DNA from: an uncultured Acidobacteriota bacterium
GTDB lineage: Bacteria > Acidobacteriota > Polarisedimenticolia > JACPZX01 > DASXTC01
Length of the DNA: 64,000 bases
Direction of reading: 5' to 3'
NCBI GenBank assembly: GCA_963806495.1
Contig: CAWDYA010000007.1
Span: 371,945 to 435,944 of the forward strand
In this document: positions 4,230 to 21,939 of the stretch, piece by piece
Layout: every line of letters starts with the position of its first letter
Numbering within the stretch: position 1 is the first letter of the stretch
Made by a program: the position numbers and the translations under genes
The notes under the pieces: model-generated
Told to the model about the DNA's origin: nothing
Databases searched by the model: none
Seen by the model: the letters and a program-made list of their open reading frames with translations, nothing else

Positions 4230-5240
4230 TCATACCCAGCGCAGGATGTTCTTTACCGACTTGATGTTGAGATCGCCGAGGTAGTTGATCTCGATCGCCG
4301 AGTTGCAGCAGCACTCCGGGCACCGCGCGTAGGTCATGTCCGGCAGCGACTCGAACGCCTTCTTCACCCCGTCCCGCACGCAGTTGCCCCCCTTCGTCTT
4401 GGGGAGCCCCCGCATGTCGAAGCAGGAGTAGCAGTCGCCGTTCGTGTCGATGTAGCAGAACAGCTTGCCGGAGTAGCAGCGGGGGAACTTGTCGTACGTC
4501 CCGTTGAGCCGGTACGTGTCCCGGACGAACTCGAGCGTCGCCTCGGACGCGCCGATGTGCTTGTTGCGCTTCTTCTCCTCGATCAGCCACTCGACCGTGC
4601 GGCGGTGCTCGTCCTTGTCGGGATAGAGCGGATCGAGCCGGTCGCCGGCGAGATAGTGGTCCGACAGGTTTCCGAAATCGCAGTAAAAATCGAGCTCCTC
4701 GGCCTTTCGCACCACCCACTCGACGTAGTCGAGATCGCCCTTGGTGAGGGGCGTGAAGGTCCAGACCTTGATCCCGATCTCACGGAACACCTTGATCGCC
4801 TCGAGGGCTTTCTCCCAGGCGTCCTTCATGTTGCGCTGGCGGTCGTGGACCTCCTTCGGGCCGTCCAGGCTGATGAACACCAGATCGAGCTTGCGCAATT
4901 CCTCGATCTTCCGTCTCGCCAGCAGTCCATTGGAGTTCATGCTGGTGAAGATGCCGTGGCCTTTGGCCGTGTCGATCAGAGTGCCGATGTCGGCGCGCAG
5001 CGACGCCTCGCCGCCGGTCATCACCACGCGCTCGCATCCGAGCTCGCCCAGCTCATCGATGATCCCGACGAGCTGCGGGGTGCTCAGGTCGCGCATGTTC
5101 CTCAGGGGTATGTCGCAATACTCGCACCGCTGGTTGCAGCGGTCCGTAACGGACAAGGAGACGGCGAGAGGGCGTTTGGTGCCCAGAAAATGCGTCTGGG
5201 CGATCTTGGCCCCGGTCGTGATCTCCTGAAGGAGCTTCAT
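4230..5240 (-). CDS. Radical SAM enzyme with C-terminal Cys-rich SPASM/twitch-like domain (MoaA/PqqE-like)
   Basis: 336 aa; 'SVTDRCNQRCEYC' CxxxCxxC motif near the N-terminus; C-terminal region with 9 Cys ('CYSGKLFCYIDTNGDCYSC ... CPECCC'); AGGTG Shine-Dalgarno 6 nt upstream. Confidence 0.85.
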   Translation of the reverse strand: MKLLQEITTGAKIAQTHFLGTKRPLAVSLSVTDRCNQRCEYCDIPLRNMRDLSTPQLVGIIDELGELGCERVVMTGGEASLRADIGTLIDTAKGHGIFTSMNSNGLLARRKIEELRKLDLVFISLDGPKEVHDRQRNMKDAWEKALEAIKVFREIGIKVWTFTPLTKGDLDYVEWVVRKAEELDFYCDFGNLSDHYLAGDRLDPLYPDKDEHRRTVEWLIEEKKRNKHIGASEATLEFVRDTYRLNGTYDKFPRCYSGKLFCYIDTNGDCYSCFDMRGLPKTKGGNCVRDGVKKAFESLPDMTYARCPECCCNSAIEINYLGDLNIKSVKNILRWV

Positions 5241-5342
5241 CGAGACACCTCATATCCGGAAAGCTCATCCGACGCGCCGGGGGATACACGTACCCGCTCG
5301 GGGTGGCGCCGGGATGTGCCGCAGGGGTAGGCAGTGAGTTGT

Positions 5343-5371
5343 CTTATACCCGGTAAGAGTATAACTGTCAA
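5343..5371 (-). promoter_or_regulatory. Candidate sigma70-type promoter for the radical SAM / GT2 pair
   Basis: Minus strand reads TTGACA, 17-nt spacer, TATAAG in the 140-bp gap between the upstream GT2 stop and the radical SAM start. The -35 is consensus; the -10 has G at position 6. Confidence 0.4.
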
Positions 5372-5382
5372 GGAGTTTCGCG

Positions 5383-6123
5383 CTATTGTCCGTTTTTGTT
5401 CGTATTGTCCCTGGCCCCGGGGCCACCCGGCAGCCCGGGGGGCCGCCAGAGGAAGGCGACCTTCAGGATCGTCAGCAGTATCCGGGTCCCGTGCCTGACT
5501 CTTCTGAACTTCCGGATCCCACCGAGCCGACGCTCGCGGGTCACCGGCACCTCGATGATCACCAGACCGGCCCTGGCCGCCTTGAGGATCATCTCCGACT
5601 CCACCTCGAATTCACAGAACTCCCAGCGCAGGCCGCGCACCGCCTCCCGCCGGATGACCCGGTACGACGCGTTGATGTCGCTGATCTGGGTGCCGCACAG
5701 GAGGTTGGCGAGCCCCGTCAGGACGCTGTTGGCGCGCCTGTCGATCGGGCTGATCCCTCGGTCCCGGAAGACGCCCAGGAAGCGTGAGCCGTTGAGGAAG
5801 TCGGCGCCGGTGTTCCTGAAGGCGGCCAGGAGGGACGGCAGCTCCGCCGGGACGTCCTGGCCGTCGGAATCCATCAGGACGAGCGTCTCGCCCGCAGCCT
5901 CCGCCAGGCCCGCGCGCACCGCCAGGCCCTTCCCCTCGTGGCGCCGTTTCAGCACGCGTGCGCCGGCGAGCCGCGCCTGACGGGCGGTGGCGTCCGTCGA
6001 GCCGTCGTCCACGACGATCACCTCTCCGGTCTCCCCGATGGAGCCGAGAGCGCCGAGGACGCCCCGCACCACGTCACCCACGGTCAGTTCCTCGTTGAGG
6101 GCCGGGATGATGACGGAGATCAC
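5383..6123 (-). CDS. Glycosyltransferase family 2, DPM1/ArnC-like (polyprenol-phosphate sugar synthase-like)
   Basis: 246-aa C-terminal part of ORF 5383..7644: 'ISVIIPALNEE', 'VVDDGSTD', 'MDSDGQD'. GTG start at 6123 overlaps the deacetylase stop. The N-terminal 500 aa of the track ORF is low-complexity read-through and is excluded. Confidence 0.8.
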   Translation of the reverse strand: MISVIIPALNEELTVGDVVRGVLGALGSIGETGEVIVVDDGSTDATARQARLAGARVLKRRHEGKGLAVRAGLAEAAGETLVLMDSDGQDVPAELPSLLAAFRNTGADFLNGSRFLGVFRDRGISPIDRRANSVLTGLANLLCGTQISDINASYRVIRREAVRGLRWEFCEFEVESEMILKAARAGLVIIEVPVTRERRLGGIRKFRRVRHGTRILLTILKVAFLWRPPGLPGGPGARDNTNKNGQ

Positions 6124-6968
6124 GATCCATCCCTGGCCGCGTGATGCTCGCGGATCGAGCAGAAGCGGAACTCGCGCAGGAGCCGGGAGTACTTGGCCAG
6201 CGCGCCGCGCAGACCCCAGTAGTGATACCAGGTGTGCCGCGCGGGCAGGCCCGGCACGCGCGGCTGGTCGGCATCCAGCTCCCACGGGTGCATGTACACC
6301 ACGGCCGGTCGTCCCTTTCCGTTCATCCGCCGGAGCGCGGCGGCAGTGAGCGTGTAGGGCAGGAGCCGGAAGAAGATCCCACCCGCCACCGGGATCGTCA
6401 GTCCCCCGATCCTCACGGCCGCCGGCGGGTACTCGGTCAGGCCGTCCTGGATCGGGTGGATGTCGAGACGCGCGTTCTTGACACCGTACATCCAGGTGCG
6501 CAGCGGGAAGATGCTCGAGTCCACCCGGTAGCCGCTTCGGCTCAGCGCCGGCAGGGCCCAGGGGCACCGCTCCGTGATCGACCACGAGGGCGCCCTGAAT
6601 GCCACCACCGGCTCGCCCGCGAGCTCGGACAGCACTCCCGCCGAATCCCGAAGCTGAGTCTCGAACGCCTCCGGCGTGAGGGAGTAGACGAGATCGTGGT
6701 AGTAGCTGTGGCTCGCGATCTCGTGGCCTCCTTCGCGGATGCGGCGGATCAGTCCGGGGTGCGCGGCCGCAACGCAGCCCAGGGTGAAGAAGGTCGCCGT
6801 CGAGCCGTTTTCGGCGAGCAGCGCGAGCAGGCGGTCGGTCTGCGCCTCCACACGGCTCTCCAGAGCGGACCACCGCTCGCGCGGCAGGTCGAAATCGTTG
6901 CCGTGGAACCACTCCTCGACGTCGATGGTGAGTATGTTGCGCATGCTGGCCATCCTCAGGATGGGCAT
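6120..6968 (-). CDS. Polysaccharide deacetylase (NodB-like; resembles the EPS/PEP-CTERM-locus subfamily)
   Basis: Real part of ORF 6120..7715: 'MRNILTIDVEEWFHGND', 'HEIASHSYYH'. Start could be ATG at 6968, 6953 or 6944; upstream part of the track ORF is artefact. Confidence 0.8.
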   Translation of the reverse strand: MPILRMASMRNILTIDVEEWFHGNDFDLPRERWSALESRVEAQTDRLLALLAENGSTATFFTLGCVAAAHPGLIRRIREGGHEIASHSYYHDLVYSLTPEAFETQLRDSAGVLSELAGEPVVAFRAPSWSITERCPWALPALSRSGYRVDSSIFPLRTWMYGVKNARLDIHPIQDGLTEYPPAAVRIGGLTIPVAGGIFFRLLPYTLTAAALRRMNGKGRPAVVYMHPWELDADQPRVPGLPARHTWYHYWGLRGALAKYSRLLREFRFCSIREHHAARDGS

Positions 6969-6972
6969 TATA

Positions 6973-9207
6973 ATGCCGCGACCTGACTTGCCGAGCGAGC
7001 GGAGGACGTCTGCCTTGGGATCCGAAACAACCGTAACGCCCGCAGTGTCCGGAGCGGGACCCCGGCTCCGGGTCGCACTGGCCACGGGCCTGTCCACGGG
7101 CATCCTGCTGGCGCTGATGGAGACGGCGGGCGTGCTCGCAAGCGCCGGCGCCCCCGGGGCCGCGCCCCTGGACATCCTTGTCCTCGCGACCTGGCTGGCC
7201 GTGCCGTATGTGGCGGCCCTGGGCGCGCTCGCGGCGGTCCTCGCGCTGCTCGTCCGCCCCCCGGAGGCCGCCCGGGCCCTGACGGTGGGGCTGGCCGTCG
7301 CCGTCGCTCTCGCGATGTGGCTTCGTACCCTGCTGCGGCTTGGCGAGGGGACCGCGGCGTACCCGGTGCTGGAGCTGCTCCTGGCGGGAGCGGCCTGCGC
7401 CGCCGGGGCCGCCTTCGGAATGCTGGCCGGTCGGGCCCGGCCGGGCGGGTTCCGGCGGGGGCCCTTGCTCTGGGGAGGCCTCGCCGCCCTGGCCGCGCTG
7501 GTGGCGCAGAGCGGCAACGTATCGGGCGCGTTCGGCGCGCCGGGGACACCGGCGCCGCTCGCCTGGCGGGTGGGTCTGGCCGTCGCCGTGGGTCTGGCGG
7601 TGGCGGCGGCGAGGCGCTTCCTGCCAAGGCTCGGGTCTCTGCATCCGGCGGCCGGCCGGATGGCTCGCATCGCCGGATTCGTGGCGGCGGCCGGCTGGGT
7701 CGTCTTCTGCGGCAACGGTGTTGCCCGGATGCTGTCGGTGCCGGAGGTCGCGTGGACATCGTCGCTTCAGGGGGAGGGCTCCGCATCGAGGCCCAACGTC
7801 ATCCTGATCTCAATCGACACCTTGCGGGCGGATCATGTTTCCAGCTACGGCTACAGGCGGCGCACCACGCCGGGGATCGATCAGCTCGCCGCCTCGGGGG
7901 TCCTCTTCGCGCACGCCGTCTCCACGGCGAGCTTCACGACACCGGCGCATGCCTCCATGATGACCGGCCTTTTCCCCACCAGCCACGGGGCGCAGTACCA
8001 GAGCGAGAACCCCGATGCGTTCGTCATCGCTCCGATCGCGCCTTCCGTGCCGACCCTCGCGGAGATCCTCGAGGATCAGGGGTACGACACCGCGGGGTTC
8101 GTCGCCTCGCCCATGGTGGGGCGGCAGTTCGGCTTCTCGCGCGGCTTCCGGGTTTTCGACGACCACTATGATCGCCTCAGCTCGGTGCGCGGGCAGATGT
8201 TCGCGCGCACCACCCCGTTCCGACTGCTCCGGCGGGCCGGCATGTTCGACGCGCGGGATCTCGACGCCGAGCGCAAGGCGGACGAGGTGAACGCCGCGGT
8301 CGTGCGCTGGATCGAGGCCCGACGCGGCGCGCCCGCGCCGTTTTTCCTGTTCGTGCACTACTACGACCCGCACGCGCCGTACGCCGCGCCCGGGCGTCCG
8401 ATCGAGACGGACCCTGCCCCCCGTCACGTCGCGTACGATCTCGATCTGCTGCTGCGCGGCCAGTACACGCTTTCAGTCGGCGCTCGCGACGTGGTGGTCG
8501 CGCGCTACGACGAGGAGATCGCATACACGGATCGCGCGCTGTCGCGCCTGCTCGACGCGCTCGGCCGTTCGGTTCTCGACAACAGCCTGGTCATCGTCAC
8601 CTCGGACCACGGGGAGAGCTTCGGGGAGCACGGCCACTGGGGCCACAACATCCTCCTGTACGAGGATCTCCTCGACGTGCCGTTCATCGTCCGCCCCCCC
8701 GGCGGCGCGGCTGCAGGGCGCGTCATCGACGATGTCATCGTGCAGCCGACCGACATCCTGCCGACGGTTCTCTCGTGGCTCGGCATCCGTGCTCCCGCGG
8801 GGACGCAGGGCAGGGATCTCGCCGGCCTCATCCGCGGGGACGGCGGCGACGCGGCCGGCGAGCATGCCCCCGATCCTCACGTCCGGCAGCTCGCGTTCTC
8901 CGAGCTGGCCCGCAACGTCGGCTGGGTCCGTCGCTGGGGCCCCGCGCTCGACCGCGACCTGCTTGCGGCGCGGGCCGGGCGGTGGAAGTACATCCGTTCG
9001 TCGGCGGGGGCGGAGGAGCTCTACGATCTGCAGGCGGACGCCGCCGAGTCGATCAATCTGGCTTCGGCGGACCCGGTTGCCCTGGACTCGATGCGACAGT
9101 TGATGGACGCTTGGCGGCTCACCCAGACGCGGCATCTCGAAAACGAGAACACTCCCCTCGACGAGGGGCTGCTCGAGAACCTCAGGAGCCTCGGCTATGT
9201 CCAGTAG
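6973..9207 (+). CDS. Membrane-anchored sulfatase-like hydrolase/transferase, Thr-nucleophile type (LtaS/EptA-like), paralog 1
   Basis: Real part of ORF 6739..9207. Hydrophobic multi-helix N-terminus, then 'PNVILISIDTLRADH'. The sulfatase C-x-P-x-R position reads 'FTTPAHASMMTG'. Ends 'DEGLLENLRSLGYVQ'. Confidence 0.75.
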   Translation: MPRPDLPSERRTSALGSETTVTPAVSGAGPRLRVALATGLSTGILLALMETAGVLASAGAPGAAPLDILVLATWLAVPYVAALGALAAVLALLVRPPEAARALTVGLAVAVALAMWLRTLLRLGEGTAAYPVLELLLAGAACAAGAAFGMLAGRARPGGFRRGPLLWGGLAALAALVAQSGNVSGAFGAPGTPAPLAWRVGLAVAVGLAVAAARRFLPRLGSLHPAAGRMARIAGFVAAAGWVVFCGNGVARMLSVPEVAWTSSLQGEGSASRPNVILISIDTLRADHVSSYGYRRRTTPGIDQLAASGVLFAHAVSTASFTTPAHASMMTGLFPTSHGAQYQSENPDAFVIAPIAPSVPTLAEILEDQGYDTAGFVASPMVGRQFGFSRGFRVFDDHYDRLSSVRGQMFARTTPFRLLRRAGMFDARDLDAERKADEVNAAVVRWIEARRGAPAPFFLFVHYYDPHAPYAAPGRPIETDPAPRHVAYDLDLLLRGQYTLSVGARDVVVARYDEEIAYTDRALSRLLDALGRSVLDNSLVIVTSDHGESFGEHGHWGHNILLYEDLLDVPFIVRPPGGAAAGRVIDDVIVQPTDILPTVLSWLGIRAPAGTQGRDLAGLIRGDGGDAAGEHAPDPHVRQLAFSELARNVGWVRRWGPALDRDLLAARAGRWKYIRSSAGAEELYDLQADAAESINLASADPVALDSMRQLMDAWRLTQTRHLENENTPLDEGLLENLRSLGYVQ

Positions 9208-9360
9208 AAACTGCCCGACCATGGTGCGCCTGGCCGGACGGGGCGACCAGTGTGGAAGGCCCGGCCGGCGCGTTGGAAGGCCGCCGGCCGCCGGGGCAGG
9301 CGCATGCCGGCCGGGGCCGGCGCCCGGGGCATCCCGAGGTCTTCGCCGGGCGGCGCCAAG

Positions 9361-11583
9361 ATGAACGAAGTCAAGGGGTTGTCGGATAGCATGGAGCGCG
9401 GCGAGCGCACGGTCGTCGGGCAGTTTCAGCGAGTCACTTCCGGGTTGGTGGTGGCCACCGCCTCGGGTCTGCTCCTCGGTCTGATGGAGACGGCCGGGAT
9501 CCTCTCGCAGCACGGCGCTCCATCGGGATCGTCGATCGACATCCTCGTGACCGCCACCTGGCTGGCGTTGCCGTATGCCGCGACGATCGCGATGGCCGCC
9601 CTGATGGTCGCTTTCGCGGTTCCGGCGCCCGGTCTGTCGCGGGGGCTGGCGGCCGGGATCGGGGGCGGGGTGGTCCTGCTGCTCTGGATCAGGACGCTGG
9701 CGAACCTGGGAGAGGGGAGCGCGGCGTATCCCGTCCTGGAGCTGCTCGTCGTCGGCGTGGCCTGCGCCGGTGGCATGGCGGCCGGGATGCTGGCGGCGAG
9801 ACCGGCCCCGGGGGGAGGCCGGACGCTGATGATCGGGGCCGGTATGGCGGGGCTGGCGGCCCTGGTGGCGTCGAGCCGGAACATCCCCGGTCCTTTCGGC
9901 CGACCCGGGCCGCCCGCAGGCTTCGGCGGCCGGCTGCTCTGGGCGGTGATCGTTGCGGCGGCTGTGGCAGCCGTGATCGTGATGGCACGCGCCCTCGCCT
10001 CACGCGGGGAGGGCGCCCGGTGGCTCGTGCGGGGCCTTGCGGCCGCGAGCGCGGTCGGGTGGGTCATCTACTGCGGATCAGGTTTCGTCCACATGCTGGG
10101 TTGGTCGGGGTCCGAGCCTCGTCTGCCGGAGGCCGGCGCCGTCGAGCCGGGACGGCCCAACGTCATCCTGATATCGATCGATACCCTGCGTGCCGACCAT
10201 CTGTCGTGCTACGGCTACGGGCGGCCGACCACGCCCGGCATCGACGGGTTCGCGGCGTCCGCCGTGCTGTACCGCAACGCCTCGTCCACCGCGAGCTTCA
10301 CCCTCCCCGCGCACGCGTCCATGATGACCGGACAGTTCCCCTCGAGCCACGGCGCGACGTATCAGAACCGAGATCCGGGAAGCTTCACGCTGCGGGGCAT
10401 CCGTCCCGGCTCGCCGATGCTGGCGGAGATCCTGCGCGAGCGCGGATACGACACGGCCGCCTTCGTCAGCGGGCCGCTGCTGAGCCGGCACTTCGGCTTC
10501 GACAGGGGGTTCCGCATCTACGATGATCGGTACGACCGACTCCAGAGCGCGCGCGAGCGACTGTTCGCGCGGTCCTTCCTGTTCCGGGTCCTCTACCGCC
10601 TCGGCGTGTTCTCGGACCGCGATCTCGACGCGCAGCGCACGGCGGGGGAGGTGAACCCGCTCATGGACGACTGGCTCGCAAAGCGCCGGGGATCCACGAG
10701 ACCGTTCTTCCTCTTCGTCCACTACTGGGATCCCCACGGGCCGTACGCCCCGCCGGCCCCGCTCGACGAGCGGCCGGACGGGACTCCTATCCGGGTCGAC
10801 TACGACATGGACCGGCTGCTGATCGGCGACTACACGTACACGCCGGAGGCGCTTGCGGATCTGATCACGCTCTACGACGGCGAGATCCAGTGGGTCGATC
10901 GGCATGTCGCCGCGCTGCTCGACCGGCTGCGCGCCAACAGGCTGCTCGACGGCGCCCTGGTGATCCTGACCGCAGACCATGGCGAGAGCTTCGGTGAGCA
11001 CGATCACTGGGAGCACAGCCGGGTGCTGTACGAGGATGTGCTGCACGTGCCGTTCATCATGAAGCTGCCCGGGGAACGTGACGGCGGCCGCGTGGTCGAG
11101 GACGTCGTCGCGCAGCCCACGGACATCCTTCCCACGGTGCTCGCCGAGGCGGGGATTCAGACGCCGCCAGAGGTCGAGGGGCGGAACCTGCTCGCCTTCC
11201 TCGAGCCGGACGGTGACGCAGGTGCGTCCGGGCAGGCCGAGTCGCACGTCCGGGGGCGCGGGCTGGCGTTTGCGGAGCTCGATCGCAACGTGGACTGGCC
11301 CGAGCGATGGGGCGCCCGGTTCGACCGGGACCTGGTCTCGGCGCGGACCCTCCGTTACAAGTACATCCACTCCTCCACCGGCGAGGAGGAGCTGTACGAT
11401 CTGCGGACGGATCCGGGCGAGCTGACCAATCTGGCGTCCGTGGATCCGTCGGCGGCGTCAGCGATGCGACAGCTCGTCGAGGCATGGCGCAAGGCACTCT
11501 CGATCGCGTCGCCGGATGAGCGACAGGAGCAGATCGATGAAGGGTTGCTGGAGAATCTCAGGAGCCTCGGCTATGTCCAGTGA
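9361..11583 (+). CDS. Membrane-anchored sulfatase-like hydrolase/transferase, Thr-nucleophile type (LtaS/EptA-like), paralog 2
   Basis: Real part of ORF 9250..11583, start 'MNEVKG'. Same architecture as paralog 1 ('PNVILISIDTLRADH', 'FTLPAHASMMTG') and identical C-terminal tail 'DEGLLENLRSLGYVQ'. Confidence 0.75.
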   Translation: MNEVKGLSDSMERGERTVVGQFQRVTSGLVVATASGLLLGLMETAGILSQHGAPSGSSIDILVTATWLALPYAATIAMAALMVAFAVPAPGLSRGLAAGIGGGVVLLLWIRTLANLGEGSAAYPVLELLVVGVACAGGMAAGMLAARPAPGGGRTLMIGAGMAGLAALVASSRNIPGPFGRPGPPAGFGGRLLWAVIVAAAVAAVIVMARALASRGEGARWLVRGLAAASAVGWVIYCGSGFVHMLGWSGSEPRLPEAGAVEPGRPNVILISIDTLRADHLSCYGYGRPTTPGIDGFAASAVLYRNASSTASFTLPAHASMMTGQFPSSHGATYQNRDPGSFTLRGIRPGSPMLAEILRERGYDTAAFVSGPLLSRHFGFDRGFRIYDDRYDRLQSARERLFARSFLFRVLYRLGVFSDRDLDAQRTAGEVNPLMDDWLAKRRGSTRPFFLFVHYWDPHGPYAPPAPLDERPDGTPIRVDYDMDRLLIGDYTYTPEALADLITLYDGEIQWVDRHVAALLDRLRANRLLDGALVILTADHGESFGEHDHWEHSRVLYEDVLHVPFIMKLPGERDGGRVVEDVVAQPTDILPTVLAEAGIQTPPEVEGRNLLAFLEPDGDAGASGQAESHVRGRGLAFAELDRNVDWPERWGARFDRDLVSARTLRYKYIHSSTGEEELYDLRTDPGELTNLASVDPSAASAMRQLVEAWRKALSIASPDERQEQIDEGLLENLRSLGYVQ

Positions 11584-11589
11584 GACGCC

Positions 11590-12754
11590 GTGGGCCATCT
11601 GAAGCGGTTCGCGCTCAACGTCGCGGTGCTGGGCGCCGCCAGCCTCGTGGCCCTGCTCTTCGCGGAAGGGGTGCTCCGGTTCGCCGCCCACAAGGTGCTG
11701 CACGGGGGGGAGTGGGCGACCGCGGGCCAGATCTTCCGCAAGATCGACCCACCGGTCGGTTTCAGTCTTCAGCCGGGCTCCACCCAGATCCTCGTGACCG
11801 GAGGCGCCTACACGTCGCGTGCCACCATCAACTCAGCCGGCATGCGGGATGTCGAGCATGCGCTCGAGCCGGCCCCCGGCGTCAAGCGGATCCTCGTGCT
11901 CGGCGACTCGTTCATGTTCGGGCAGGGTGTCGAGATGGAAGACACTCTGCCGCGCCGGCTGGCGGGGCTCCTGCCGGGGGTGGAGGTGATCAACACCGGG
12001 ACGCCCGGCTACGATCTGGGCCAGTACTACCTGCTGTACGAGGACAGGGCCTACCGGTACAAACCCGACCTGGTGCTCGTCGGCTTCTTCATCAACGATC
12101 TGGCTCGTGCGCGTGAGCTCGACGTGACGTACGGCGAGGACGGGTTGCCCGTCTCGTACCAGCGGAGCGAGGAGATGATAGCGAAGGATCTACGCCGGGG
12201 CCCCGCGCGGGCTCACCGGGGCGGTCTCGTCGTGGTTCAGGGATCATTCGCTGCTCTACGTCCTGGTGCGCAAGCGGCTGGACAATCTGATGGCGGGCCG
12301 GCGCCGCCCCGCAGCGGAATCAACGGACGATCGCGCGGCCGACACGCCGTATCTGTCGGTGTTTCGCAAGCCCGATGCGGACGGGGGAGGGGCCGCGGAC
12401 TGGGCCCGGGCCTGGCGGATCCTCGACGCGCTCAAGCGCAGCGTCGAGACACACGGGGCGCGTTTTGCCGTCATCATGGTCCCCGCTCCGTTTCAGACAT
12501 CGGACGCGGCGTTCGGTACGTGGGTCGAGTGGGCGGGTGCCGAAGGGGAGGACCTGTCACGCAGCGAGCCGCAGGAGATGATGAAGTCCTGGTGCGCGCG
12601 CTCCGGCACGCCCTGCCTGGATCTGCTTCCCGTCTTCGAGAAGGGGGATCGCGACACGCTCTACTTCCCGTACGACATGCACTGGACCGCCAGGGGGCAC
12701 GCAATGGCGGCACGCGCCGTTGCGTCCTTTCTCGAGGCGCGCGGTCTGCCGTGA
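11590..12754 (+). CDS. SGNH/GDSL-family hydrolase (frameshifted)
   Basis: N-terminal part in ORF 11590..12765 ('LGDSFMFGQGV' block I); C-terminal part in ORF 12266..12754 ('YDMHWTARGH' block V). The frames switch between about 12182 and 12240 in a GC-rich run. Confidence 0.65.
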
Positions 12755-14737
12755 TCAGAAGGTGATCGTGTATCGCGCGTGGTACGAGAAGTGCAGCCGG
12801 CTCTGCGGCACCGTGGCGGCCGGCGCGGGCGAGAGCATCCGGATGTCGAAGCTGCCGGGCGTGACCACGAACTCGCGTCGTTTCTTTCCCTCGACGTAGC
12901 AGAACTGCCCGTCGTCGAAGACCAGGCCGACCCCCTGATCGCCGGTGTTGTCGATGACGAGTCGCGGCAGTCCGAGTCCCGGGACGACGACGCGGGAGAT
13001 CTCCGGCAGGGGCGGCGGTGGCTCGGGCGCCCTGGCCTTCTTTTTCTTCTTTCCCTTGGCCGGTGGCGCGGGGGGAGCCGCGAGCGGATCGATCGGCTTG
13101 ATCACGCGATCCGTCAGGCGCAGGCGTCCGCCGTCGTCTACCATGAGCGAGACGATCCGGACGCCATCGGGGACCTGCTGGTGAAGGATCGCCTTGCCGG
13201 CCCGCCGCAGCATCGAGACGGCGTCGGCGAGATGATCCTGTCTGACGCCCAGGGCTGCGGCGAAACCGGGAGCGGCCGCCGGGTCGGTCAGGTAGGACAG
13301 CTCGGGCGCATCGACATAGCTTTCGAACGGGTGGTCCGTGGGCAGACCCTTCACGCTCGCCTGATCGAGCGGGTCCCCCTCGGCCGGGATGAACAGGCCG
13401 ATGACGAGCCGCGATTCCCCCGCGTTCTTGCGCAACGGGTAGACCTTTGTCGTCTCGGTCACCTGCGCGTCCTCGACCCGCATGAGCTGAAGCGTCTCCG
13501 AGTCGAACAGATACGGGGGCAGGCCGTCGAAGGCCATGCCGATGGCGGAGCGCGGCTGCTCACGCTCGACGGGATACGTATCGACGCGCCCGCTGACGCT
13601 CCCCGGCAGACAGCAGTGTGCAGGGTCGAACGTCAGGCTCGCGTTGTCCAGCACCGTGAGCGTGTCCGGCAAATCGTGCACCGTCCGCCAGGCCGGCAGG
13701 AGGGCGTCATCGAAGGCGTCCGCGTCCTTTTCGATGAGGACGTTGTAGGCGCCCGGATCGAGCTCCACTTCGAGGGGTGTCTGACCGATGTAGTAGTCGT
13801 ACTCGGTCGCCTCGCGAAGCTGGGTGGCCGCCGGTGAGACGTAGACCGAGCAGCCCTCGGGCACCGAGGTCACCCAGACCCGATCGCGCGCCGGGTCGGT
13901 CGGCCGCGCCGGCGGACCCTCCACCTGGGACAGAGGCACGGCGACGACGTCCTCCGCCACGAGCGGCGCGACGGGCGCCACCGATGCGGCCTGGTTCACG
14001 GCGCTGATCACCTCATCGGTGGCCCCCGCTTCGCGAAGCGCGAGCGCCTCCTCGAGTGTCAGCGGCGCTGCCATGCCGCGCGTGGCGACGGTCGTCGCCA
14101 CCTCGGACGGCTCCTCCCCGGACTCCAGCATCCCGATCACCTCGTCGGCGGTCATCGGCTCGTGCGGCGTGCCGGTGGCCCCGGGCGCCACGGTCGCGCC
14201 GCCACGTGCGAGTGCGAGCACGATTTCGTCGGGCAACCCCTTCTCTCTCTGGGCCAGGAGAGTGTCGATGTCGGGGACCTCGTCGAGCCCCTCGCCGGCC
14301 ACCCGTGCCACAATCTCTTCCACGGGGGTCCCCTTGCGGTGCATCCTCAGCACCTGCTTCACCGACAGTGCTCCGGTGGCGGTCTCCGACCCCGTCTCCG
14401 CCTCCGGTGGCGGCGCGGGCGGTGCGGCCGCGGGCTCCATCGTCCCGGCCATCCGCACGATGAGCTCGTTGGAGGCTCCCACCTTCTTCAGCCGGATCAG
14501 CTCGTCCACCGTCAGATCGAATGTGGCGCCAGTCCGCTTGATGCGGGAGATCAGCACGGACGAGGAGACCCCCTCGCGAAGCATCTGGATCACCTGGGGG
14601 AGCGTCAGGGAGATCTCTCCTTCGGGAGCGGCCTTGGGCAGGCCCTGCGGTCCCGCGACCAGGGCGCAGGGAGCCAGCAGGAGGATCGCCAGCATGGATG
14701 CGAAGAGAACCTGCGTGCGGGGAATCCGTGCCGCCAT
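12755..14737 (-). CDS. Secreted PEGA-domain protein with N-terminal tandem helical repeats
   Basis: Real part of ORF 12755..15646: signal-like 'MAARIPRTQVLFASMLAILLLAPCALVAG', three ~45-aa repeats of the 'LTVDELIRLKKVGASNELI' type, PEGA-like 'VWVTSVPEGCSVYVSP...GQTPLEV', poly-Lys 'KGKKKKKARAP'; GAGGAGG Shine-Dalgarno upstream. Confidence 0.6.
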   Translation of the reverse strand: MAARIPRTQVLFASMLAILLLAPCALVAGPQGLPKAAPEGEISLTLPQVIQMLREGVSSSVLISRIKRTGATFDLTVDELIRLKKVGASNELIVRMAGTMEPAAAPPAPPPEAETGSETATGALSVKQVLRMHRKGTPVEEIVARVAGEGLDEVPDIDTLLAQREKGLPDEIVLALARGGATVAPGATGTPHEPMTADEVIGMLESGEEPSEVATTVATRGMAAPLTLEEALALREAGATDEVISAVNQAASVAPVAPLVAEDVVAVPLSQVEGPPARPTDPARDRVWVTSVPEGCSVYVSPAATQLREATEYDYYIGQTPLEVELDPGAYNVLIEKDADAFDDALLPAWRTVHDLPDTLTVLDNASLTFDPAHCCLPGSVSGRVDTYPVEREQPRSAIGMAFDGLPPYLFDSETLQLMRVEDAQVTETTKVYPLRKNAGESRLVIGLFIPAEGDPLDQASVKGLPTDHPFESYVDAPELSYLTDPAAAPGFAAALGVRQDHLADAVSMLRRAGKAILHQQVPDGVRIVSLMVDDGGRLRLTDRVIKPIDPLAAPPAPPAKGKKKKKARAPEPPPPLPEISRVVVPGLGLPRLVIDNTGDQGVGLVFDDGQFCYVEGKKRREFVVTPGSFDIRMLSPAPAATVPQSRLHFSYHARYTITF

Positions 14738-14820
14738 CGAACGCCTCCTCGGTGTGTCCCCGTGAACGGCCGGATCGCCGCTGCGGGCCGGTGCATTATA
14801 AAGGATGCCGTGCCCGCCGG

Positions 14821-16074
14821 CTAATCGATCTCCATCAGCCGCTCGCTGGGGTCGGACCGGTGCATCTCGGGGATGACGGCCGCCGCGGCAGGCCGGGGCG
14901 CCGGGGCGGGCGGGGAAGGCCGATTCGTCACCGCCGGAGCAGCCGCCGTCTGCCGGGCCCCCGCCAGAAAACGGCGGACCTCGGGAGCGAGGTCGGGCGG
15001 CTCGGGCCCGTTGAGGGTGATCCAGAGCCGCAGCAATGGATCGGCGAACAGATAGCCGCGGCCCTCGCGCTGGATCAACCCCACCTCCAGCAGCCACGAG
15101 AGATAGTCGATCGCCGTGGGCAGCGAGATGCCGAGGTGACGCGCGACACGCGAGAGATTCGCCCCCTCTTCGGAGGCGAGGAGCTGCAGGATGCTGCGCA
15201 CCGCGGCATGGCCCCGGCTGCGTTCCACCAGATGGTGGTAGTCGAAGCGGCACTCCTGATGCAGCGCGCCGTACGGCGGGCTCAGCTCGGCGGCGAGCGC
15301 TCCGGGCAGATCGCTTCCAGTCGCGACACGCCGGGCCAGGATCTCGAGATATGCCGGATGGCCGTGGGTGGCCTTCAGCCAGAGGTCGATCCCGTCCCCC
15401 GTACCGGCCGGCGCGACGCCGAACCGATCGAGGAGGGCTGCGATCTCGAGCGCGTCGAGCGGCGGCAGCGCGACTCTCATCAGGCCCCGGCCCGCCTCGG
15501 CGGCCCGCGCGCCGATCTCGTCGATGAGGGGCGCCGGCCGCGAGGCGGGGCCCGCCGTGGCCACGATCGCCAGATGAGCGCTCCCGGCGAGCCGTCGCCC
15601 CAGGATCGAGGGCCACTGCTTCAGCCCGGCGTGACGTGACAGGCATCCTGCCTCGCCCAGGTCGTCGACGAGCAGGATGAGCCGCTCGCCGGCTTCGTCT
15701 GCCGCCGCACCGGGGTACGACATGGCGAGATCGAGCAGCAGGGATGGATTCGGCTTCCGGCGGGCCCGTTCCGTCTCGATGGCGTGGAGCAGGTCGCGGG
15801 CCGGTGGCTCGGAGGGCATGGACCCATCACCGGACGGCGCAAGCGCGCGCGCCACGATCGGGGGCAGATGACGGGCCACCGACACAGGTCCGGCGCACAG
15901 CCTGTCCATCTCGACGAGCGCGCAGCGCGAGCCCGCTGCGGCGAGACGCCGCTGCATCGCCCTCAGGAGGGTGCTCTTGCCCGCGCCGCGGGGCGCCTCC
16001 ACGACCTGCACCGGCGGTGTGTCGTCGAGCGCCGCGGCGAGAAGCTCCTCCTCGAGGAGCGTGCGCGTCGTCAC
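14821..16074 (-). CDS. AAA-type ATPase with C-terminal winged-HTH (archaeal-ATPase/DUF234-like)
   Basis: 417 aa; Walker A 'APRGAGKST', Walker B-like '[10 protein letters not shown]', C-terminal '[28 protein letters not shown]'. Start ATG overlaps the hutU stop (ATGA). Confidence 0.7.
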
Positions 16075-17759
16075 GGACGGTCCCGCTCCGGTGGCGGCAT
16101 CATCGGTATCCTCACGCCGCGTTCACGAGCGGCCTGGATCGCCTCCGGGTAGCCGGCGTCGACGTGACGCATCACTCCGGTTCCCGGATCCGTTGTCAGC
16201 ACCCGCTGCAGCCGCGCCCGTGCGGTGTCGGTGCCGTCGGCGACGGTCACCATCCCGGCGTGGATCGACAGGCCGATGCCGACACCGCCACCGTGATGCA
16301 CGGAGACCCAGCTCGCACCGGCCGCGGTGTTCAGCAGCGCGTTGAGTATCGGCCAGTCGGCGACCGCGTCGGTGCCGTCCCGCATGCCTTCGGTCTCGCG
16401 GTTCGGGGAGGCGACGGAGCCGGAGTCGAGATGGTCCCGGCCGATCACGATGGGGGCCTTGATCTCGCCTTTCGCGACCAGGTCGTTGATGATCAGGCCG
16501 AACCGGGCGCGCTCACCGTATCCGAGCCAGCAGATCCGGGACGGGAGACCCTGGAAGGCGACACGCTCGCGCGCCAGACGGATCCACCGGCAGAGCTGCG
16601 CGTCCTGCGGGAACGCCTCGAGGATCGCGTCATCCGTGCGGTGGATGTCGCCGGGATCCCCGGAGAGAGCGGCCCAACGGAACGGTCCCTTCCCCTCGCA
16701 GAACAGGGGACGGATGTAGGCGGGCACGAACCCGGGAAAGTCGAACGCGTCCGCGACCCCCGCAGTCTTCGCCTGACCGCGCAGGTTGTTGCCGTAGTCG
16801 AACACCACGGAGCCGGCCTTCTGCATCGCCAGCATGGCGCGTACCTGCGAAGCCATCGCGCCCATCGCCCGCTCGATGTACTCTGGCGGATCGGAAGCCC
16901 TCAGTCGCAGCGCCTCCTCGTAGCTCATCCCGTTGGGGACGTAGCCGTTGAGATTGTCGTGCGCGCTGGTCTGGTCGGTGACCATGTCGGGAGCGATGCC
17001 CCTCCTGACGATCTCGGGGTAGACATCGGCGGCGTTTCCCAGCAGTCCAATCGAGATCGGCTCGCCGCGCTCCCGGTGCCGTGTGGCCGTCTCGAGCGCC
17101 TTGTCGAGATCCGTTTCCATCAGGTCGCAGTACCGGGTGGACAGACGCCGCTCGATACGATCCCGGTCGACCTCGACGGCCAGCACCACCGCCTCGTTCA
17201 TGGTCCCGGCGAGCGGCTGCGCGCCGCCCATGCCGCCGAGACCCGCGGTCAGCAGGAGCCTGCCCTTGAGCGACCCGCCGAAATGCCGGCGAGCAGCGGC
17301 GGCGAACGTCTCGTACGTCCCCTGCAGGATCCCCTGGGTGCCGATGTAGATCCAGGAGCCGGCCGTCATCTGGCCGTACATCATGAGCCCTTCGCGCTCC
17401 AGATCGCGGAAGTGCTCCCAGGTGGCCCAGGCCGGCACCAGCATGGCGTTGGAGATGAGGACGCGGGGAGCGCCCGGGTGCGTCGTGAAGATCCCCACGG
17501 GCTTTCCCGACTGCACGAGCAGCGTCTCGTCGTTTCCCAGCTCCTTGAGCGAACGGACGATCGCATCGAAGCACTCCCAGTTGCGCGCCGCCTTGCCGGA
17601 GCCTCCATAGACGATCAGCTCGTCCGGCTTCTCGGCCACCTCCGGGTCGAGATTGTTCATCAGCATGCGCATCGCGGCTTCCTGCTCCCACCCTTTGCAC
17701 GCGAGCGTCGTACCGCGCGGCGCGCGAATCGTCCTTTTCATGGTCGTCTTCTCCATCAT
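16071..17759 (-). CDS. hutU: Urocanate hydratase
   Basis: 562 aa, full-length urocanase-like sequence ('[10 protein letters not shown]', '[16 protein letters not shown]'). Confidence 0.9.
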
Positions 17760-19285
17760 CCCAGCGGTCCTGTGATCGATTCCGCGGCGCGGCGCAGCGT
17801 CCCGTCGCGCAGCATCGAGCCTATCGCCGCGATGTCGGTCGAGAGCACGCGGTCACGCTGAAGCGCCGGGACGCGCTGCCGCAACGCGGCGTGAACCGCC
17901 TCGAGAGCCGGCGAGCTCCTCAGGGGCCGGCGCAGCTCGATCGCCTGTGCGGCGACCATCATCTCGATCGCCAGGATCGACTCGTGGTGCTCGACGATGG
18001 TGGCGGCCGAATGGGCCGCGGCTACGCCCATCGAAACGTGGTCCTCCTTGCCCGCCCCCGTGGGGATGGAATCGACGCTGGAGGGGTGGGCGAGCTTCTT
18101 GTTCTCGGAAACGAGTGCCGCCGCGGTCACCTGCGCCATCATGAAGCCCGACTCGAGACCGGGGCTCGGCGCGAGAAACGCGGGCAGGCCGCTCAGGGCG
18201 GGGTTGACCATCCGCTCGGTGCGCCGCTCCGAGATCGAGCCGGCATCGGCGACGGCGATGCCGAGCAGGTCCATCGCCTGCGAGACCGGCTGTCCGTGGA
18301 AGTTTCCTCCCGGCAGCGCCTCGGCCCCTTCGGCGAAGAAGAGCGGGTTGTCGGTGACGGCGTTGATCTCGATCCCGAGAACACGGCGGACGTAGGAAAG
18401 CGCGTCACGCGCGGCGCCATGCACCTGCGGCATGCATCGCAGCGAGTAGGCGTCCTGCACCCGCCCGCATGTCCGGTGCGAGTCCATGATCCCGCTCCCC
18501 TCGAGCAGGAGCCTGATGTTGGACGCCACGATTGCATGGCCGGGATGGGGCCGCAGCGCGGCGATCCGCTCGTCGAACGGCCGAGCGCTGCCGAGCAGCC
18601 CTTCGAGCGTCATGGCTCCCGCGATGTCGGCGCCGATCATGAGCAGCCCGGCGGCGTCCAGCGCCCTGGCGCCGATCGCGGTCATCGCCTGCGTCCCGTT
18701 GACGAGAGCGAGGCCTTCCCGGCTCGCGAGCCGGACCGGCTTCAGGCCGGCGCCCGCCAGCGCATCGGCCGCGGCGGTTCGTCGGCCCCGATGTATCGCT
18801 TCGCCGTCGCCCATCAGGCCGAGTGCGAGATGTGCCAGCGGCGCGAGGTCGCCGCTCGCGCCCACCGAGCCCCGGGAGGGGATGACCGGCATGACATCCG
18901 CGTTGAACATCGCCAGCAGCGATTCGAGCAGATCCACCCGCACCGCCGAATGTCCACGCGCGAGAACGTTGGCCCGCAGAAGCATCATCACGCGTACGGT
19001 TTCCACCGGGAGCGGCTCGCCCACGCCGGCGCAGTGGCTCCGTATCAGATTCTCCTGGAGCCGGTCCACGTCGGCGTCGTCGATCCTCACCTCGCTCAGC
19101 AGACCGAAGCCGGTGTTGAACCCGTAGACGGCGCTTCCGCTGCGTGTCAGCGATTCGAGCGCCTCCCGGCATGCCGTCACGCGCTCGCGCGCCGCGGGGG
19201 CGAGCCGGAGGCGCAGGGACCCGCACGCGGCGTCCGCGAGGTCTTCGAACGTGAGATGCTCACCGTCGAGATCGATGGTTCTCAT
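17756..19285 (-). CDS. hutH: Histidine ammonia-lyase
   Basis: ORF 17756..19336 with start chosen at 'MRTIDLDG'; MIO-forming '[12 protein letters not shown]' motif; stop overlaps hutU start. Confidence 0.9.
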
Positions 19286-19528
19286 GTGGCAGGGCAGGGC
19301 TCCCGGGGAAACGATACGCGCGGGATGCGCGCGCACGCGAGAATGCTAACACAGCGCCACGACGCCGCCCAACGGATAGTGCGGCAAACCCTGTGATATA
19401 CTCGACGCCGTTCTGGAGGCCCGATGCCGAGCCCCCGGACCGCAGTCCCACCGGTCCGCGGCCCGCCGTCGCTTGTCATCAACCGGTCGAACCGGACCAC
19501 CTCGACATCACGGGAGCAGGCTGATCTC

Positions 19529-20827
19529 ATGGCGAATATCGTCCTGATCGGCGGGCAGTGGGGCGACGAAGGGAAGGGGAAGGTCGTCGACCTGCTCACG
19601 CCGCACTTCGACATCGTGGCCCGATACTCCGGCGGGCCGAACGCCGGGCACACCGTGAGACGGGGGGAGACGAAGTACGCGCTGCGTCACATTCCGTCGG
19701 GGATCCTGGCGCCGCACGTCACCTGCGTCATCGGCAACGGGGTGGTGATCGACCCCGCGTCGCTGCTCGAGGAGATCGACAAGCTGCGCGAATCGGGCGT
19801 GCGGGCCGACGGCCGTCTTTTCATCAGCAACCGGGCGCACGTCATCCTGCCGGGCTACGTGGAGTGGGAGAAGCGCCGCGAGGACGGCGTGACCGATCAG
19901 AAGATCGGGACGACCCGCCGCGGTGTCGGGCCGGCCTACACCGCCAAGATCGCTCGCACCGGCCTGCGGATCGCCGACCTGTTCGACCGGGCCGCGCTTC
20001 CGGCGAAGCTGGCCGCCGCCATGGCGTTCTTCGGCGAGTCGTCCGCGGTTCCTCCCGGGGACGACACGATCGAGCTGTGCGCGCGCCATGCCGACGCTCT
20101 CGCCCCGTATGTGACCGACACGGGAAGCATGATCGACCGGATGATCAAGGCGGGCTCGCGGGTCCTGTTCGAAGGGGCGCAGGGGACGATGCTGGACATC
20201 GATCACGGCACGTATCCGTTCGTCACTTCCTCCAACTCGACCGCGGGGGGCGCGTGCACCGGCATTGGCATTGGCCCGACCGCCATCGACGGGGTGCTGG
20301 GGATCTTCAAGGCCTACGGCACGCGGGTGGGCGAAGGGCCGTTTCCCACCGAGGAGCTCGGCCCGATGGGCGACAGGATCCGGGAGCGCGGACGCGAGTA
20401 TGGCACCGTGACGGGACGTCCGCGGCGTTGCGGCTGGTTCGACGCCGTGGCCGCGCGGTACGCCGTTCGGGTGAGCGGCATGGACAGCGCGGCGCTGACG
20501 CTGCTCGACGTGCTGGATGCGTTCGACGAGATCCGGGTCTGCACCGGGTACCGCCACAAGGGGTCCGTGCTGAAGGAGATCCCGGCGGAGTGGCCGATCC
20601 TGCAGTCGTGCGAGCCGGACTACGTCACGCTGAAGGGATGGAAGCAGGAGACCACCGGCTGCCGGTCGTGGGACGACCTGCCGGCCGCGGCGCAGGACTA
20701 TGTGAGGACGCTGGAGGATCTGCTCGAGACCGATATCGACCTGGTATCGGTCGGGGCGACACCGGAGTGCAGCGTGCTGCGCGATGTCTCGAAGCTGTCC
20801 GCCTGGCTCTCCGCTCAGGAGGCCTGA
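19529..20827 (+). CDS. purA: Adenylosuccinate synthetase
   Basis: ORF 19424..20827 with start chosen at 'MANIVLIGGQWGDEGKGK' (P-loop at N-terminus), typical PurA length. Confidence 0.9.
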   Translation: MANIVLIGGQWGDEGKGKVVDLLTPHFDIVARYSGGPNAGHTVRRGETKYALRHIPSGILAPHVTCVIGNGVVIDPASLLEEIDKLRESGVRADGRLFISNRAHVILPGYVEWEKRREDGVTDQKIGTTRRGVGPAYTAKIARTGLRIADLFDRAALPAKLAAAMAFFGESSAVPPGDDTIELCARHADALAPYVTDTGSMIDRMIKAGSRVLFEGAQGTMLDIDHGTYPFVTSSNSTAGGACTGIGIGPTAIDGVLGIFKAYGTRVGEGPFPTEELGPMGDRIRERGREYGTVTGRPRRCGWFDAVAARYAVRVSGMDSAALTLLDVLDAFDEIRVCTGYRHKGSVLKEIPAEWPILQSCEPDYVTLKGWKQETTGCRSWDDLPAAAQDYVRTLEDLLETDIDLVSVGATPECSVLRDVSKLSAWLSAQEA

Positions 20828-20841
20828 CCGGGGGCGCCGCC

Positions 20842-21939
20842 TCAGCGAGCGCCGCCATGCATGCGGATGGCCCTTCGCAGAAGCTCTTCGAGGCGATCCA
20901 TGTTGGCCGAAAGGTCGCCTTCCTTCTCCACGAGCGTGCGGTTCACGGGTGCCGCTGCCTTGCGCAACGCGCGATCCTCGATCGCTCGCTCGAGGGCCAC
21001 GCTGAGCGAGACGGCGTCTCCCGGCTCGAAGAACAGCCCCGTCTCGCCCTCACGGATCCATCCCCGGTTGGCCCGGATCCGGCTCACGACGGGAAACAGG
21101 CCGCAGGCCATCGCCTCGAGAAGCGAGGAACTGGTCCCGTCGCTCAGCGAGGCGGAGACGTAAACGTGAGCCGACCGGAGCAAAGCACGCAGGGTGTCGT
21201 GGTCGACCTCTCCGGCGAACGTGACCGACTCGCCCAAGCCGAGTGAGGCGGCCTGCGACCGCCGGCGCTCCAGGTCCGGTCCGCCGCCTACCAGTGTGCA
21301 GCGCAGCGGCGGGCCCGCCCCTTTCAGCCTGGCCAGCGCCGCGACGAGCGTCTCGTTGCCGTAGACCGGCTCCTGCCGGCGGGTACAGACGATGTGGATG
21401 GGCCCGTCTGCCTCGTCTTCGGCCGCTGCGGGAGCGAAGAAGGATGTGTCGACGCCCACGGGGAAGCAGGCGATCTTCTCGGGGGTCACGCCGCAGGCCA
21501 CCAGCTTCTCGACGAGTTCCTCGGAGACGGCGTGCACGAGCCGCGCCCGCCCGCACACGTATCGCATCATCGGCCCATGCAGACGTCCTCCCGGCAGATA
21601 GCCCGCCTGTTCCAGCACGTCGCCACCGCGTGCCGAGACCACCAGCGGCCCCCTCCAGGCGAGGGCGGCCGTCATCCCGTTGGAGCTCAGATAGGTGGCG
21701 AGGACGACATCGGGGGCGAAGCCGGAAAGCAGTCGGCGGACGCGTGGCACCCTGGCGAGGAACCGGAGCGGGCCCGGCATCTCGAAACGGACGGGCCGAT
21801 CGAGGTGGACGACACGGACACCCTCCAGCGGGTTGGGGCTGAACGAGAGCACGAGGACCTGATGGCCGCGTTGCAGGAGCTGGCGGGCGTAGTGTCTGGT
21901 CCAGACAGCGTTGGTATGCGCCACCAGCGCGACCTTCAT
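20842..21939 (-). CDS. Glycosyltransferase family 4 (GT-B, group 1)
   Basis: 365 aa with the C-terminal GT4 'E.GxxxxE' region ('GWIREGETGLFFEP'); immediately downstream of the AsnB-family gene. Confidence 0.8.
   Translation of the reverse strand: MKVALVAHTNAVWTRHYARQLLQRGHQVLVLSFSPNPLEGVRVVHLDRPVRFEMPGPLRFLARVPRVRRLLSGFAPDVVLATYLSSNGMTAALAWRGPLVVSARGGDVLEQAGYLPGGRLHGPMMRYVCGRARLVHAVSEELVEKLVACGVTPEKIACFPVGVDTSFFAPAAAEDEADGPIHIVCTRRQEPVYGNETLVAALARLKGAGPPLRCTLVGGGPDLERRRSQAASLGLGESVTFAGEVDHDTLRALLRSAHVYVSASLSDGTSSSLLEAMACGLFPVVSRIRANRGWIREGETGLFFEPGDAVSLSVALERAIEDRALRKAAAPVNRTLVEKEGDLSANMDRLEELLRRAIRMHGGAR

Follow-up and report, generated by a model that had tools for sequence, protein, structure and literature searches.

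The stretch of DNA considered here, which we call the window, comprises 64,000 nucleotides (nt), with about 68% G+C, of contig CAWDYA010000007.1 from an uncultured Acidobacteriota bacterium of the Polarisedimenticolia. Four head-to-tail genes lie on its minus strand: hutH, hutU, a gene for an ATPase that ends in a winged helix-turn-helix (wHTH), and a gene for a secreted protein with a PEGA-like domain. A purA gene diverges from hutH (Table 1). A first-pass annotation, made from the sequence alone, had described the four co-directional genes and their close boundaries, and this layout is borne out. It had also proposed that the ATPase is translationally coupled to hutU, and that ATPase and secreted protein could form a small module. 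The ATPase, its family and its genomic partners are the subject of this report.

The junctions that join hutH, hutU and the ATPase gene are both stop/start overlaps of 4 bp. At the hutH/hutU junction, the ATG of hutU overlaps the TGA of hutH (ATGA, in the context gggATGAtgg); at the hutU/ATPase junction, a GTG start overlaps the TGA of hutU (GTGA, ccgtccGTGAcg), with a GGAG motif 11 nt upstream. The first-pass annotation was right that the ATPase start overlaps the hutU stop, but the sequence it gave for this overlap, ATGA, is that of the hutH/hutU junction. Because of the two overlaps, hutH, hutU and the ATPase gene very probably form one operon. A promoter/terminator scan found no minus-strand terminator-like sites between the genes, and an Rfam search of positions 12000-21000 returned no RNA element at E <= 1. 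Alternative ATPase starts at GTG codons 63 and 72 nt downstream were rejected, as they would delete a conserved, confidently modelled N-terminal helix. The hutH open reading frame (ORF) can be extended to a GTG at 19336; the ATG at 19285 is the likely start, on account of the position of a conserved -10-like box and of homologue alignments. Thiourocanate models score under their cut-offs on the window's hutU. No hutI, hutG, hutF or hutC adjoins the cluster among the ORFs scanned within about 8 kb on each side.

Table 1. Genes, protein parts and promoter-like elements of the locus (aa, amino acids, numbered within the secreted protein; other positions refer to the window)
Feature	Position	Strand	Remarks
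hutH, histidine ammonia-lyase	17756-19285	-	TIGR01225, 678 bits (equivalog level); PF00221
hutU, urocanate hydratase	16071-17759	-	TIGR01228, 974 bits (equivalog level)
ATPase, 417 aa	14821-16074	-	P-loop NTPase, helical lid, winged helix, disordered tail
TATAAT box	14795-14800	-	in the 83-nt spacer between ATPase and secreted-protein genes; candidate separate promoter
Secreted PEGA protein, 660 aa	12755-14737	-	ATG after GAGGAGG
Signal-like hydrophobic N-terminus	aa 1-29
Three four-helix repeats	aa 43-252
PEGA-like beta-sandwich	aa ~285-340
Beta-rich domain	aa ~359-546		invariant CCLPG
Lys/Pro linker	aa ~555-590
C-terminal beta-sandwich			ends ...YTITF
purA, adenylosuccinate synthetase	19529-20827	+	PF00709, E = 1.5e-165; divergent from hutH
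Divergent purA/hutH control region	19343-19402	.	two extended -10-like boxes
purA-side -10-like box, TGTGATATACT	19392-19402	+
hutH-side -10-like box, CTGTGTTAGCAT	19354-19343	-

The hutU/ATPase overlap is shared by relatives of the window. In all eight Polarisedimenticolia lineages, whose ATPases are 43-72% identical to the window's, the hutU stop overlaps the ATPase start, by 4 bp in seven lineages and by 1 bp in one, and on every contig that extends upstream the genes are arranged as purA(-) / hutH hutU ATPase. The ATPase gene also follows hutU in four further clades, at about 26-37% identity to the window protein, and hutU is a TIGR01228 equivalog in every clade tested. The overlap in eight of eight lineages and the pairing in the further clades sustain the translational coupling proposed by the first-pass annotation. 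In a sister clade (about 31-35% identity by tblastn), the ATPase gene lies directly after hutU, with a 1-bp overlap at two of three loci and a 64-nt gap at the third (L018). The sister-clade locus is without hutH, and has a Ser/Thr kinase-TPR gene upstream and LDcluster4 downstream. The kinase gene (about 2750-6200, minus strand, in L016-L018) encodes a protein of about 1,100 amino acids with faint TPR matches; it is conserved and divergent, and stands upstream of hutU where hutH and purA are found elsewhere. In a fifth, very divergent clade (P0098-type, with a LEEID tail), the ATPase gene follows hutU after a gap of 34 nt.

A scan of metagenome contigs with patterns of the ATPase only found at least 572 loci, 80 of which were analysed (ATPases 26-35% identical). 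Collapsed at 90% identity, the loci with usable upstream DNA form 58 informative clusters belonging to two distant clades. The gene directly upstream of the ATPase gene is hutU in 44 of these clusters; in 10, hutHU is missing and the ATPase gene borders directly on a divergent purA; two have hutH only and two show other contexts. When individual loci with hutU upstream are counted, 39 of 48 have the exact 4-bp overlap and one overlaps by 1 bp. The purA-adjacent loci with neither hutH nor hutU between are L062-L064, L071, L074, L078, L087, L089-L091 and L098, and hutH is present with hutU absent in L092, L094 and L095. In locus L100 (69-9104), hutU is directly followed by LDcluster4 and there is no ATPase gene; beyond LDcluster4, this locus carries a DNA methyltransferase gene and a nucleotidyltransferase/HEPN pair that resemble an insertion, then GGACT, and then a gene for P0023, a homologue of the secreted protein. 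Genes downstream of the ATPase gene vary by clade and are mostly convergent: they include rnc (RNase III), thioredoxin, a small membrane protein, an AMP-binding (acyl-CoA) ligase and LDcluster4. Since the pairing holds across many soil Acidobacteriota, the conserved partner of the ATPase, as judged from gene neighbourhoods, is hutU, with purA one step further, and not the secreted protein. One purA-hutH-hutU-ATPase locus, L012 (DASROJ010000165.1), is labelled 'Patescibacteria group bacterium'; its proteins are 70-85% identical to acidobacterial enzymes, and it is probably a mis-binned contig.

The secreted-protein gene begins 83 nt past the ATPase stop. It lies directly after the ATPase gene, co-oriented and at gaps of 1-95 nt, in seven of seven sufficiently long Polarisedimenticolia loci besides the window, and it follows the ATPase gene in this clade only. 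A TATAAT is present in six of seven readable junctions (the window, L001, L005, L007, L013 and L015, with spacers of 47-95 nt); in L008 the gap is 1 nt and contains none. A perfect TATAAT is very unlikely by chance in DNA of such G+C content, and the secreted-protein gene probably has a separate promoter at this box. A sigma-70 scan requiring both hexamers found no site here and did not call the TATAAT. In L100 the homologue P0023 is 6 kb from the hutU that lacks an ATPase gene after it, and in L018 a partial homologue is found about 8 kb from the ATPase gene. Because of the conserved TATAAT and of these two loci, the adjacency in Polarisedimenticolia looks like regional synteny tightened by the loss of intervening genes, and not like a functional pair. 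The module suggested by the first-pass annotation is thus not supported, in view of its restriction to one clade, of the unrelated downstream genes elsewhere, of the TATAAT in the spacer and of L100. The annotation had itself considered that the two genes might not be adjacent in relatives, which is the case in distant ones only, and that the hutU overlap might be unique to this genome; the overlap is widespread. The secreted protein as partner of the ATPase was a false lead, which is now removed.

The ATPase matches both P-loop motif patterns, GxxxxGK[ST] and hhhhD[DE], with APRGAGKST as Walker A (PRGAGKST, residues 28-35) and LILLVDD as Walker B (LLVDD, residues 134-138), as expected of an active NTPase. 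A PASRP motif follows strand 4, and a GxP motif (HGHP, residues 237-240) precedes the wHTH (residues 289-354) and a tail (residues 378-417) that ends in LMEID. The C-terminal wHTH, which the first-pass annotation had recognised, scores above the Pfam cut-offs of HTH_IclR (27.9 bits versus 22) and HTH_24 (22.0 versus 21.9) over residues ~293-337, scores that speak for a sequence type and not for DNA binding; it also resembles the wHTH of Csa3/CasR. Matches to ATPase families of Pfam stay below cut-off: PF01637 reaches 16.2 bits (E = 0.0094; cut-off 33.2) over residues 10-244 and model positions 10-223 of 225, AAA_16 26 bits and nSTAND5 21 bits. PF03008 (DUF234) has no match at E <= 0.1, and neither Pfam nor NCBIfam reports a GntR, UTRA or HutP domain in the protein. 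Repeat or effector domains are not found in it either, the AAA_16 and nSTAND matches being sub-threshold, and PADLOC returns weak partial matches only (best PDC-S01, 29 bits over 35 residues). The ATPase belongs to a family without an earlier name, and none of the models in Pfam, NCBIfam or PADLOC covers it.

An AlphaFold2 model built with 13 homologues is confident to about residue 375 (predicted local distance difference test 84; predicted template modelling (TM) score 0.81), and the last 40 residues are disordered. It shows a helical insertion between strands 2 and 3 (residues 56-128). Foldseek ranks two archaeal PF01637 ATPases first and second among PDB entries, 2qen (E = 7.3e-10) and 2fna (E = 3.9e-9), with full-length matches of 373-381 aligned columns and a TM of 0.65-0.67 on the target. 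The third-best match is a DNA-bound Orc1/Cdc6 (2qby_A, E = 2e-7, TM on query 0.45, 12% identity); ORC subunits come next, and below these Avs3 and the NOD modules of NLRs. When PDB was searched by sequence/profile with the ATPase, the only matches were spurious ones to P-loop proteins (RecA concatemers, for example), and Orc1/Cdc6 was not among them. PF01637 can be reached transitively: the family profile matches P0043 (E = 1.6e-41) and P0041 (E = 1.5e-42), which score 46.6 and 35.6 bits, respectively, with PF01637. The label 'DUF234-type' given by the first-pass annotation therefore suits the fold neighbourhood, where 2qen and 2fna are best, and not the domain content, as the DUF234 domain has no match and PF01637 itself is below cut-off.

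A word-indexed search retrieved 13 close ATPase homologues, all from Acidobacteriota and mostly from Ca. Polarisedimenticolia; 185,579 species genomes yielded only 5 ATPase loci. When 1.84 billion cluster representatives were searched with a profile, 622 matched at E <= 1e-3 and 53 at E <= 1e-30. Family members have about 360-470 amino acids, are mostly acidobacterial and are labelled "hypothetical" or "ATP-binding protein" in their sources. They are built from a P-loop domain of PF01637/Orc1-Cdc6 type, a helical lid, a winged helix and a disordered tail, they fall into several clades, and in most of the lineages examined, from several acidobacterial classes, their genes stand right after hutU. 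Fifty-nine retrieved full-length proteins (>330 amino acids) end in E[IL]D, nearly all as [LIF][MIV]EID at the extreme C-terminus (for example, DRLMEID, DSLIEID, SGIIEID and DTLMEID). This ending, encoded at 14821-14841 of the window, comes after a disordered Pro/Arg-rich linker and is kept across dozens of 50%-identity clusters; the named sources of EID-tailed proteins are Polarisedimenticolia, Vicinamibacteria and other Acidobacteriota. The nearly invariant parts of the family are the EID terminus and the winged-helix region (RxRG[HY], [ST]xxDYLxWL, DPLLRLW), whose motifs are better conserved family-wide than Walker A and B. Walker motifs are canonical in the Polarisedimenticolia clade and in clade G3; clade G2 has arginine in place of the Walker A lysine (GSGRT), and the sister clade has lost the acidic pair of Walker B. 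The clades with degenerate motifs still sit after hutU.

Relatives of about 550 amino acids score above the PF01637 cut-off and carry a C-terminal Mrr_cat PD-(D/E)XK nuclease. The strand with the catalytic Asp of Mrr_cat reads GQ[IV]E[IL]D in P0041 and P0044, and the short proteins stop at ...[MI]EID. The tail might be a vestige of this strand, but the resemblance covers four residues only and is unsupported by alignment to the hidden Markov model. The tail also resembles the MEEVD/IEEVD tails of Hsp90/Hsp70 that are bound by TPR carboxylate clamps. The fold and superfamily of the ATPase are already known; what appears to be undescribed is the nuclease-less, EID-tailed branch, its restriction to Acidobacteriota among named sources and the persistent hutU overlap. 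Our literature search found nothing on PABY2304, the protein of entry 2qen, and nothing joining hutU, hutH and Acidobacteria.

The known systems closest to the ATPase are of several types. Archaeal PF01637 proteins (ATPase_2, COG1672), such as PABY2304 (2qen) and SSO1545 (2fna), have the same order of P-loop, lid and winged helix, and the GxP motif recurs in the window ATPase. The latter is only 16-18% identical to them, however, is bacterial, tied to hutU and EID-tailed, and lacks DUF234 or any other PD-(D/E)XK domain. DUF234 is a PD-(D/E)XK domain of DEXX-box AAA+ ATPases (PMC3424549). Orc1/Cdc6 proteins likewise combine an AAA+ domain with helical insertion, a lid and a C-terminal winged helix, but identity to them is 12%, TM is 0.45-0.50, sequence-level membership is absent, and Walker motifs are degenerate in two clades of the family. 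One such protein, Orc1-2 of Sulfolobus/Saccharolobus, with AAA+, initiator-specific motif and winged-helix parts, acts as a transcriptional regulator (PMC6061795, PMC9738581). With STAND regulators of the MalT, LAL and AfsR types (AAA_16), the window ATPase shares the GxP motif and the order of nucleotide-binding, helical and winged-helix domains, both of which suggest a nucleotide switch; in contrast to them, it has no TPR/SUPR sensor repeats and no separate LuxR/SARP domain, and is far smaller. Regulators encoded within hut operons are known: hutC lies in those of Klebsiella and Pseudomonas, and hutP is the first gene of that of Bacillus subtilis. As a regulator, the window ATPase would be analogous to HutC (GntR family) and HutP; it has no homology to them, and has a P-loop that they lack.

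The two -10-like boxes of the purA/hutH control region are conserved in Polarisedimenticolia loci, and other clades have analogous TGnTAnnnT boxes. The start of purA (ATGGCGAATATC) lines up with that of purA at other loci. We searched for operators in 30 purA-hutH or purA-ATPase spacers, in which shared 6-8-mers were counted against shuffles: the enriched words correspond to the context of the purA start codon (ATGCCGAACATC) and to the -10-like boxes. TGTGR direct repeats, seen in some Polarisedimenticolia spacers, were discarded as indistinguishable from promoter elements. In four purA-adjacent loci (L071, L074, L078 and L098), an A-rich stretch and a TTGACA/-10 pair lie upstream of the ATPase gene; such a pair ahead of a stand-alone gene is compatible with a trans-acting factor. 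The purA-hutH spacer of L083 (2466-2707) is unlike that of other loci, being filled with short tandem repeats of GTCGTCAGTAGT-like and GACTATCGACTCT-like units.

The regulation of histidine utilisation is textbook material, but most of what is known of it comes from Proteobacteria (HutC) and Bacillus (HutP). In the Acidobacteriota, which rank with the most abundant bacteria of soils, few studies have dealt with gene regulation. We consider the ATPase an obvious candidate for the hut regulator still missing in this phylum, or else for a partner of urocanase that has gone unrecognised. Tentatively, and knowing that it may well prove wrong, we favour the first of these: the ATPase, whose gene closes the hut operon, may be a DNA-binding regulator that works as a nucleotide switch. 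It would contact DNA through its winged helix, perhaps also through the basic helical insertion of its ATPase domain, and the bound nucleotide would set its conformation or oligomeric state. Its targets would be its own operon and possibly also the divergent purA promoter. It would play the part of proteobacterial HutC, with a mechanism like that of Orc1-2, the regulator of Orc1/Cdc6 type in Sulfolobus; the EID tail could be a peptide that docks on a partner or on the folded core of the protein itself. Such a regulator is suggested by the hutU overlaps, the operon membership and the Orc1/PF01637-like fold, by the recognition-helix region as the best conserved part of the family, and by the fact that no other HTH protein was called in any hut neighbourhood examined.

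Several observations weigh against a regulator of this kind. In STAND proteins the winged helix belongs to the nucleotide switch instead of binding DNA, and the fold matches include two kinds of them, Avs3 and NLRs. Read by eye, the sequence of the folded wHTH has no marked basic character. An ATP-driven mechanism is not universal in the family, because Walker motifs are degenerate in G2 and in the sister clade. The operator search revealed no palindrome common across clades in the 30 spacers. Finally, the link of the ATPase to hut is obligatory in neither direction, because the gene is kept beside purA without hutHU in 10 of 58 clusters and is absent after hutU in L100. We may also hypothesize an enzyme-coupled switch, although we hold it to be quite improbable: the ATPase, made one-for-one with urocanase, would attach by its EID peptide to HutU, or to a carboxylate-clamp partner of the TPR type, and report the state of urocanase, or the urocanate flux, to DNA by its winged helix. 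If true, this would be a class of regulator undescribed for any catabolic operon.

The neighbourhood data may be read in other ways. It is possible, if rather doubtful, that the function of the ATPase is unrelated to histidine catabolism, and that the protein is a general regulatory or housekeeping factor caught in an old inherited acidobacterial order, purA-hutH-hutU-X. The conservation of purA in the same neighbourhood is equally wide, and we know of no role of purA in histidine degradation; the ATPase gene outlasts the loss of hutHU from the locus, and regional synteny extends beyond the operon, for instance to DLH, CSD and purA. However, the genes downstream are exchanged freely between clades while hutU and the ATPase gene remain overlapped, this overlap implies co-transcription and coupled translation, and without selection a gene order seldom persists at 26-35% protein identity. 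The same persistence of the overlap, which is specific to hutU and not to hutH and reaches down to 26% identity, could point to the enzyme itself. In that case, which we think unlikely, the ATPase would be an accessory factor of HutU (a urocanase-dedicated P-loop chaperone, activase, assembly factor or EID-docking scaffold) co-made through translational coupling. Several enzymes whose cofactors are tightly bound have a dedicated P-loop partner encoded beside them, as with MeaB, CbbX and diol dehydratase reactivase. Urocanase depends on a tightly bound NAD+ that adduct formation can inactivate, a matter on which our literature search returned nothing usable. The sister clade keeps hutU and the ATPase gene while hutH is gone from the locus, and the conserved C-terminal peptide, placed after a flexible linker, resembles a docking motif. 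Yet the intact gene stands by purA with no hutU nearby in the 10 clusters mentioned above, L100 has hutU without the ATPase, and two clades with degenerate Walker motifs still sit after hutU. Moreover, the best conserved region is a DNA-binding-type wHTH and not the ATPase motifs, and to our knowledge the urocanases of most bacteria need no such factor.

We regard two further explanations as very improbable. The ATPase and the secreted PEGA/poly-Lys protein might form a two-gene system, being adjacent and co-oriented in every long-enough Polarisedimenticolia locus and belonging to small families of the same lineage. The ATPase family is far wider than that of the secreted protein, however, and is followed by other genes elsewhere; a conserved TATAAT separates the genes, the homologues in L100 and L018 are apart from any ATPase gene, and it is not evident what mechanism a cytoplasmic wHTH ATPase could share with an exported beta-sandwich protein. 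The comparative data already largely refute this system. Equally improbable is an origin in defence, with the ATPase as what remains, or as a variant, of a STAND/PF01637 ATPase-nuclease and with no link to metabolism, as the Mrr_cat nuclease of the 550-residue relatives and the Avs3 and NLR fold matches might suggest. The window protein has no effector domain and weak partial PADLOC matches only, and its position by housekeeping genes is stable across classes, unlike that of defence islands. Whichever function proves right, the distinct nuclease-less branch would give PF01637/COG1672 ATPases their first fixed metabolic context.

The secreted-protein family numbers 10 homologues, all acidobacterial. 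The first-pass annotation had given the protein three helical repeats, a PEGA-like domain and a KGKKKKKARAPEPPPP stretch. The repeats and the stretch are present; the former, which align without gaps at 22-28% identity, measure about 58 amino acids each and not about 45 as it had stated. PEGA (PF08308) scores 18.9 bits on the window protein, against a cut-off of 20.8, and matches 9 of 10 family members (best E = 1.8e-6). The protein shares a PEGA-like beta-sandwich with PEGA-domain envelope proteins, and the rest of it is unmatched: Pfam, NCBIfam and PDB have no match for the four-helix repeats, the CCLPG domain, the Lys/Pro linker or the C-terminal sandwich. By fold, the protein matches transthyretin-like or carboxypeptidase regulatory sandwiches. 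The family conserves the Lys/Pro linker, and the C-terminal sandwich ends in an aromatic residue. A lipoprotein reading was rejected, the Cys in LLAPC being preceded by Pro and unconserved in the family alignment.

On the plus strand, a gene for an SGNH/GDSL (AlgX-like) hydrolase (11590-12754) converges on the secreted-protein gene, so closely that the two stops abut (12754 and 12755). It is split by a +1 frameshift near 12194-12207; L016 has an intact homologue of 387 amino acids, and the window copy is either a pseudogene or an assembly error. Three sulfatase paralogues (PF00884 and SGSH_C) are found near the locus, at 6739-11583 (+) and 25263-26918 (-). Two of them are in tandem and have N-terminal extensions of about 300-350 amino acids without a Pfam match. 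Sulfatases occur again near the ATPase locus in L007 and L016-L018.

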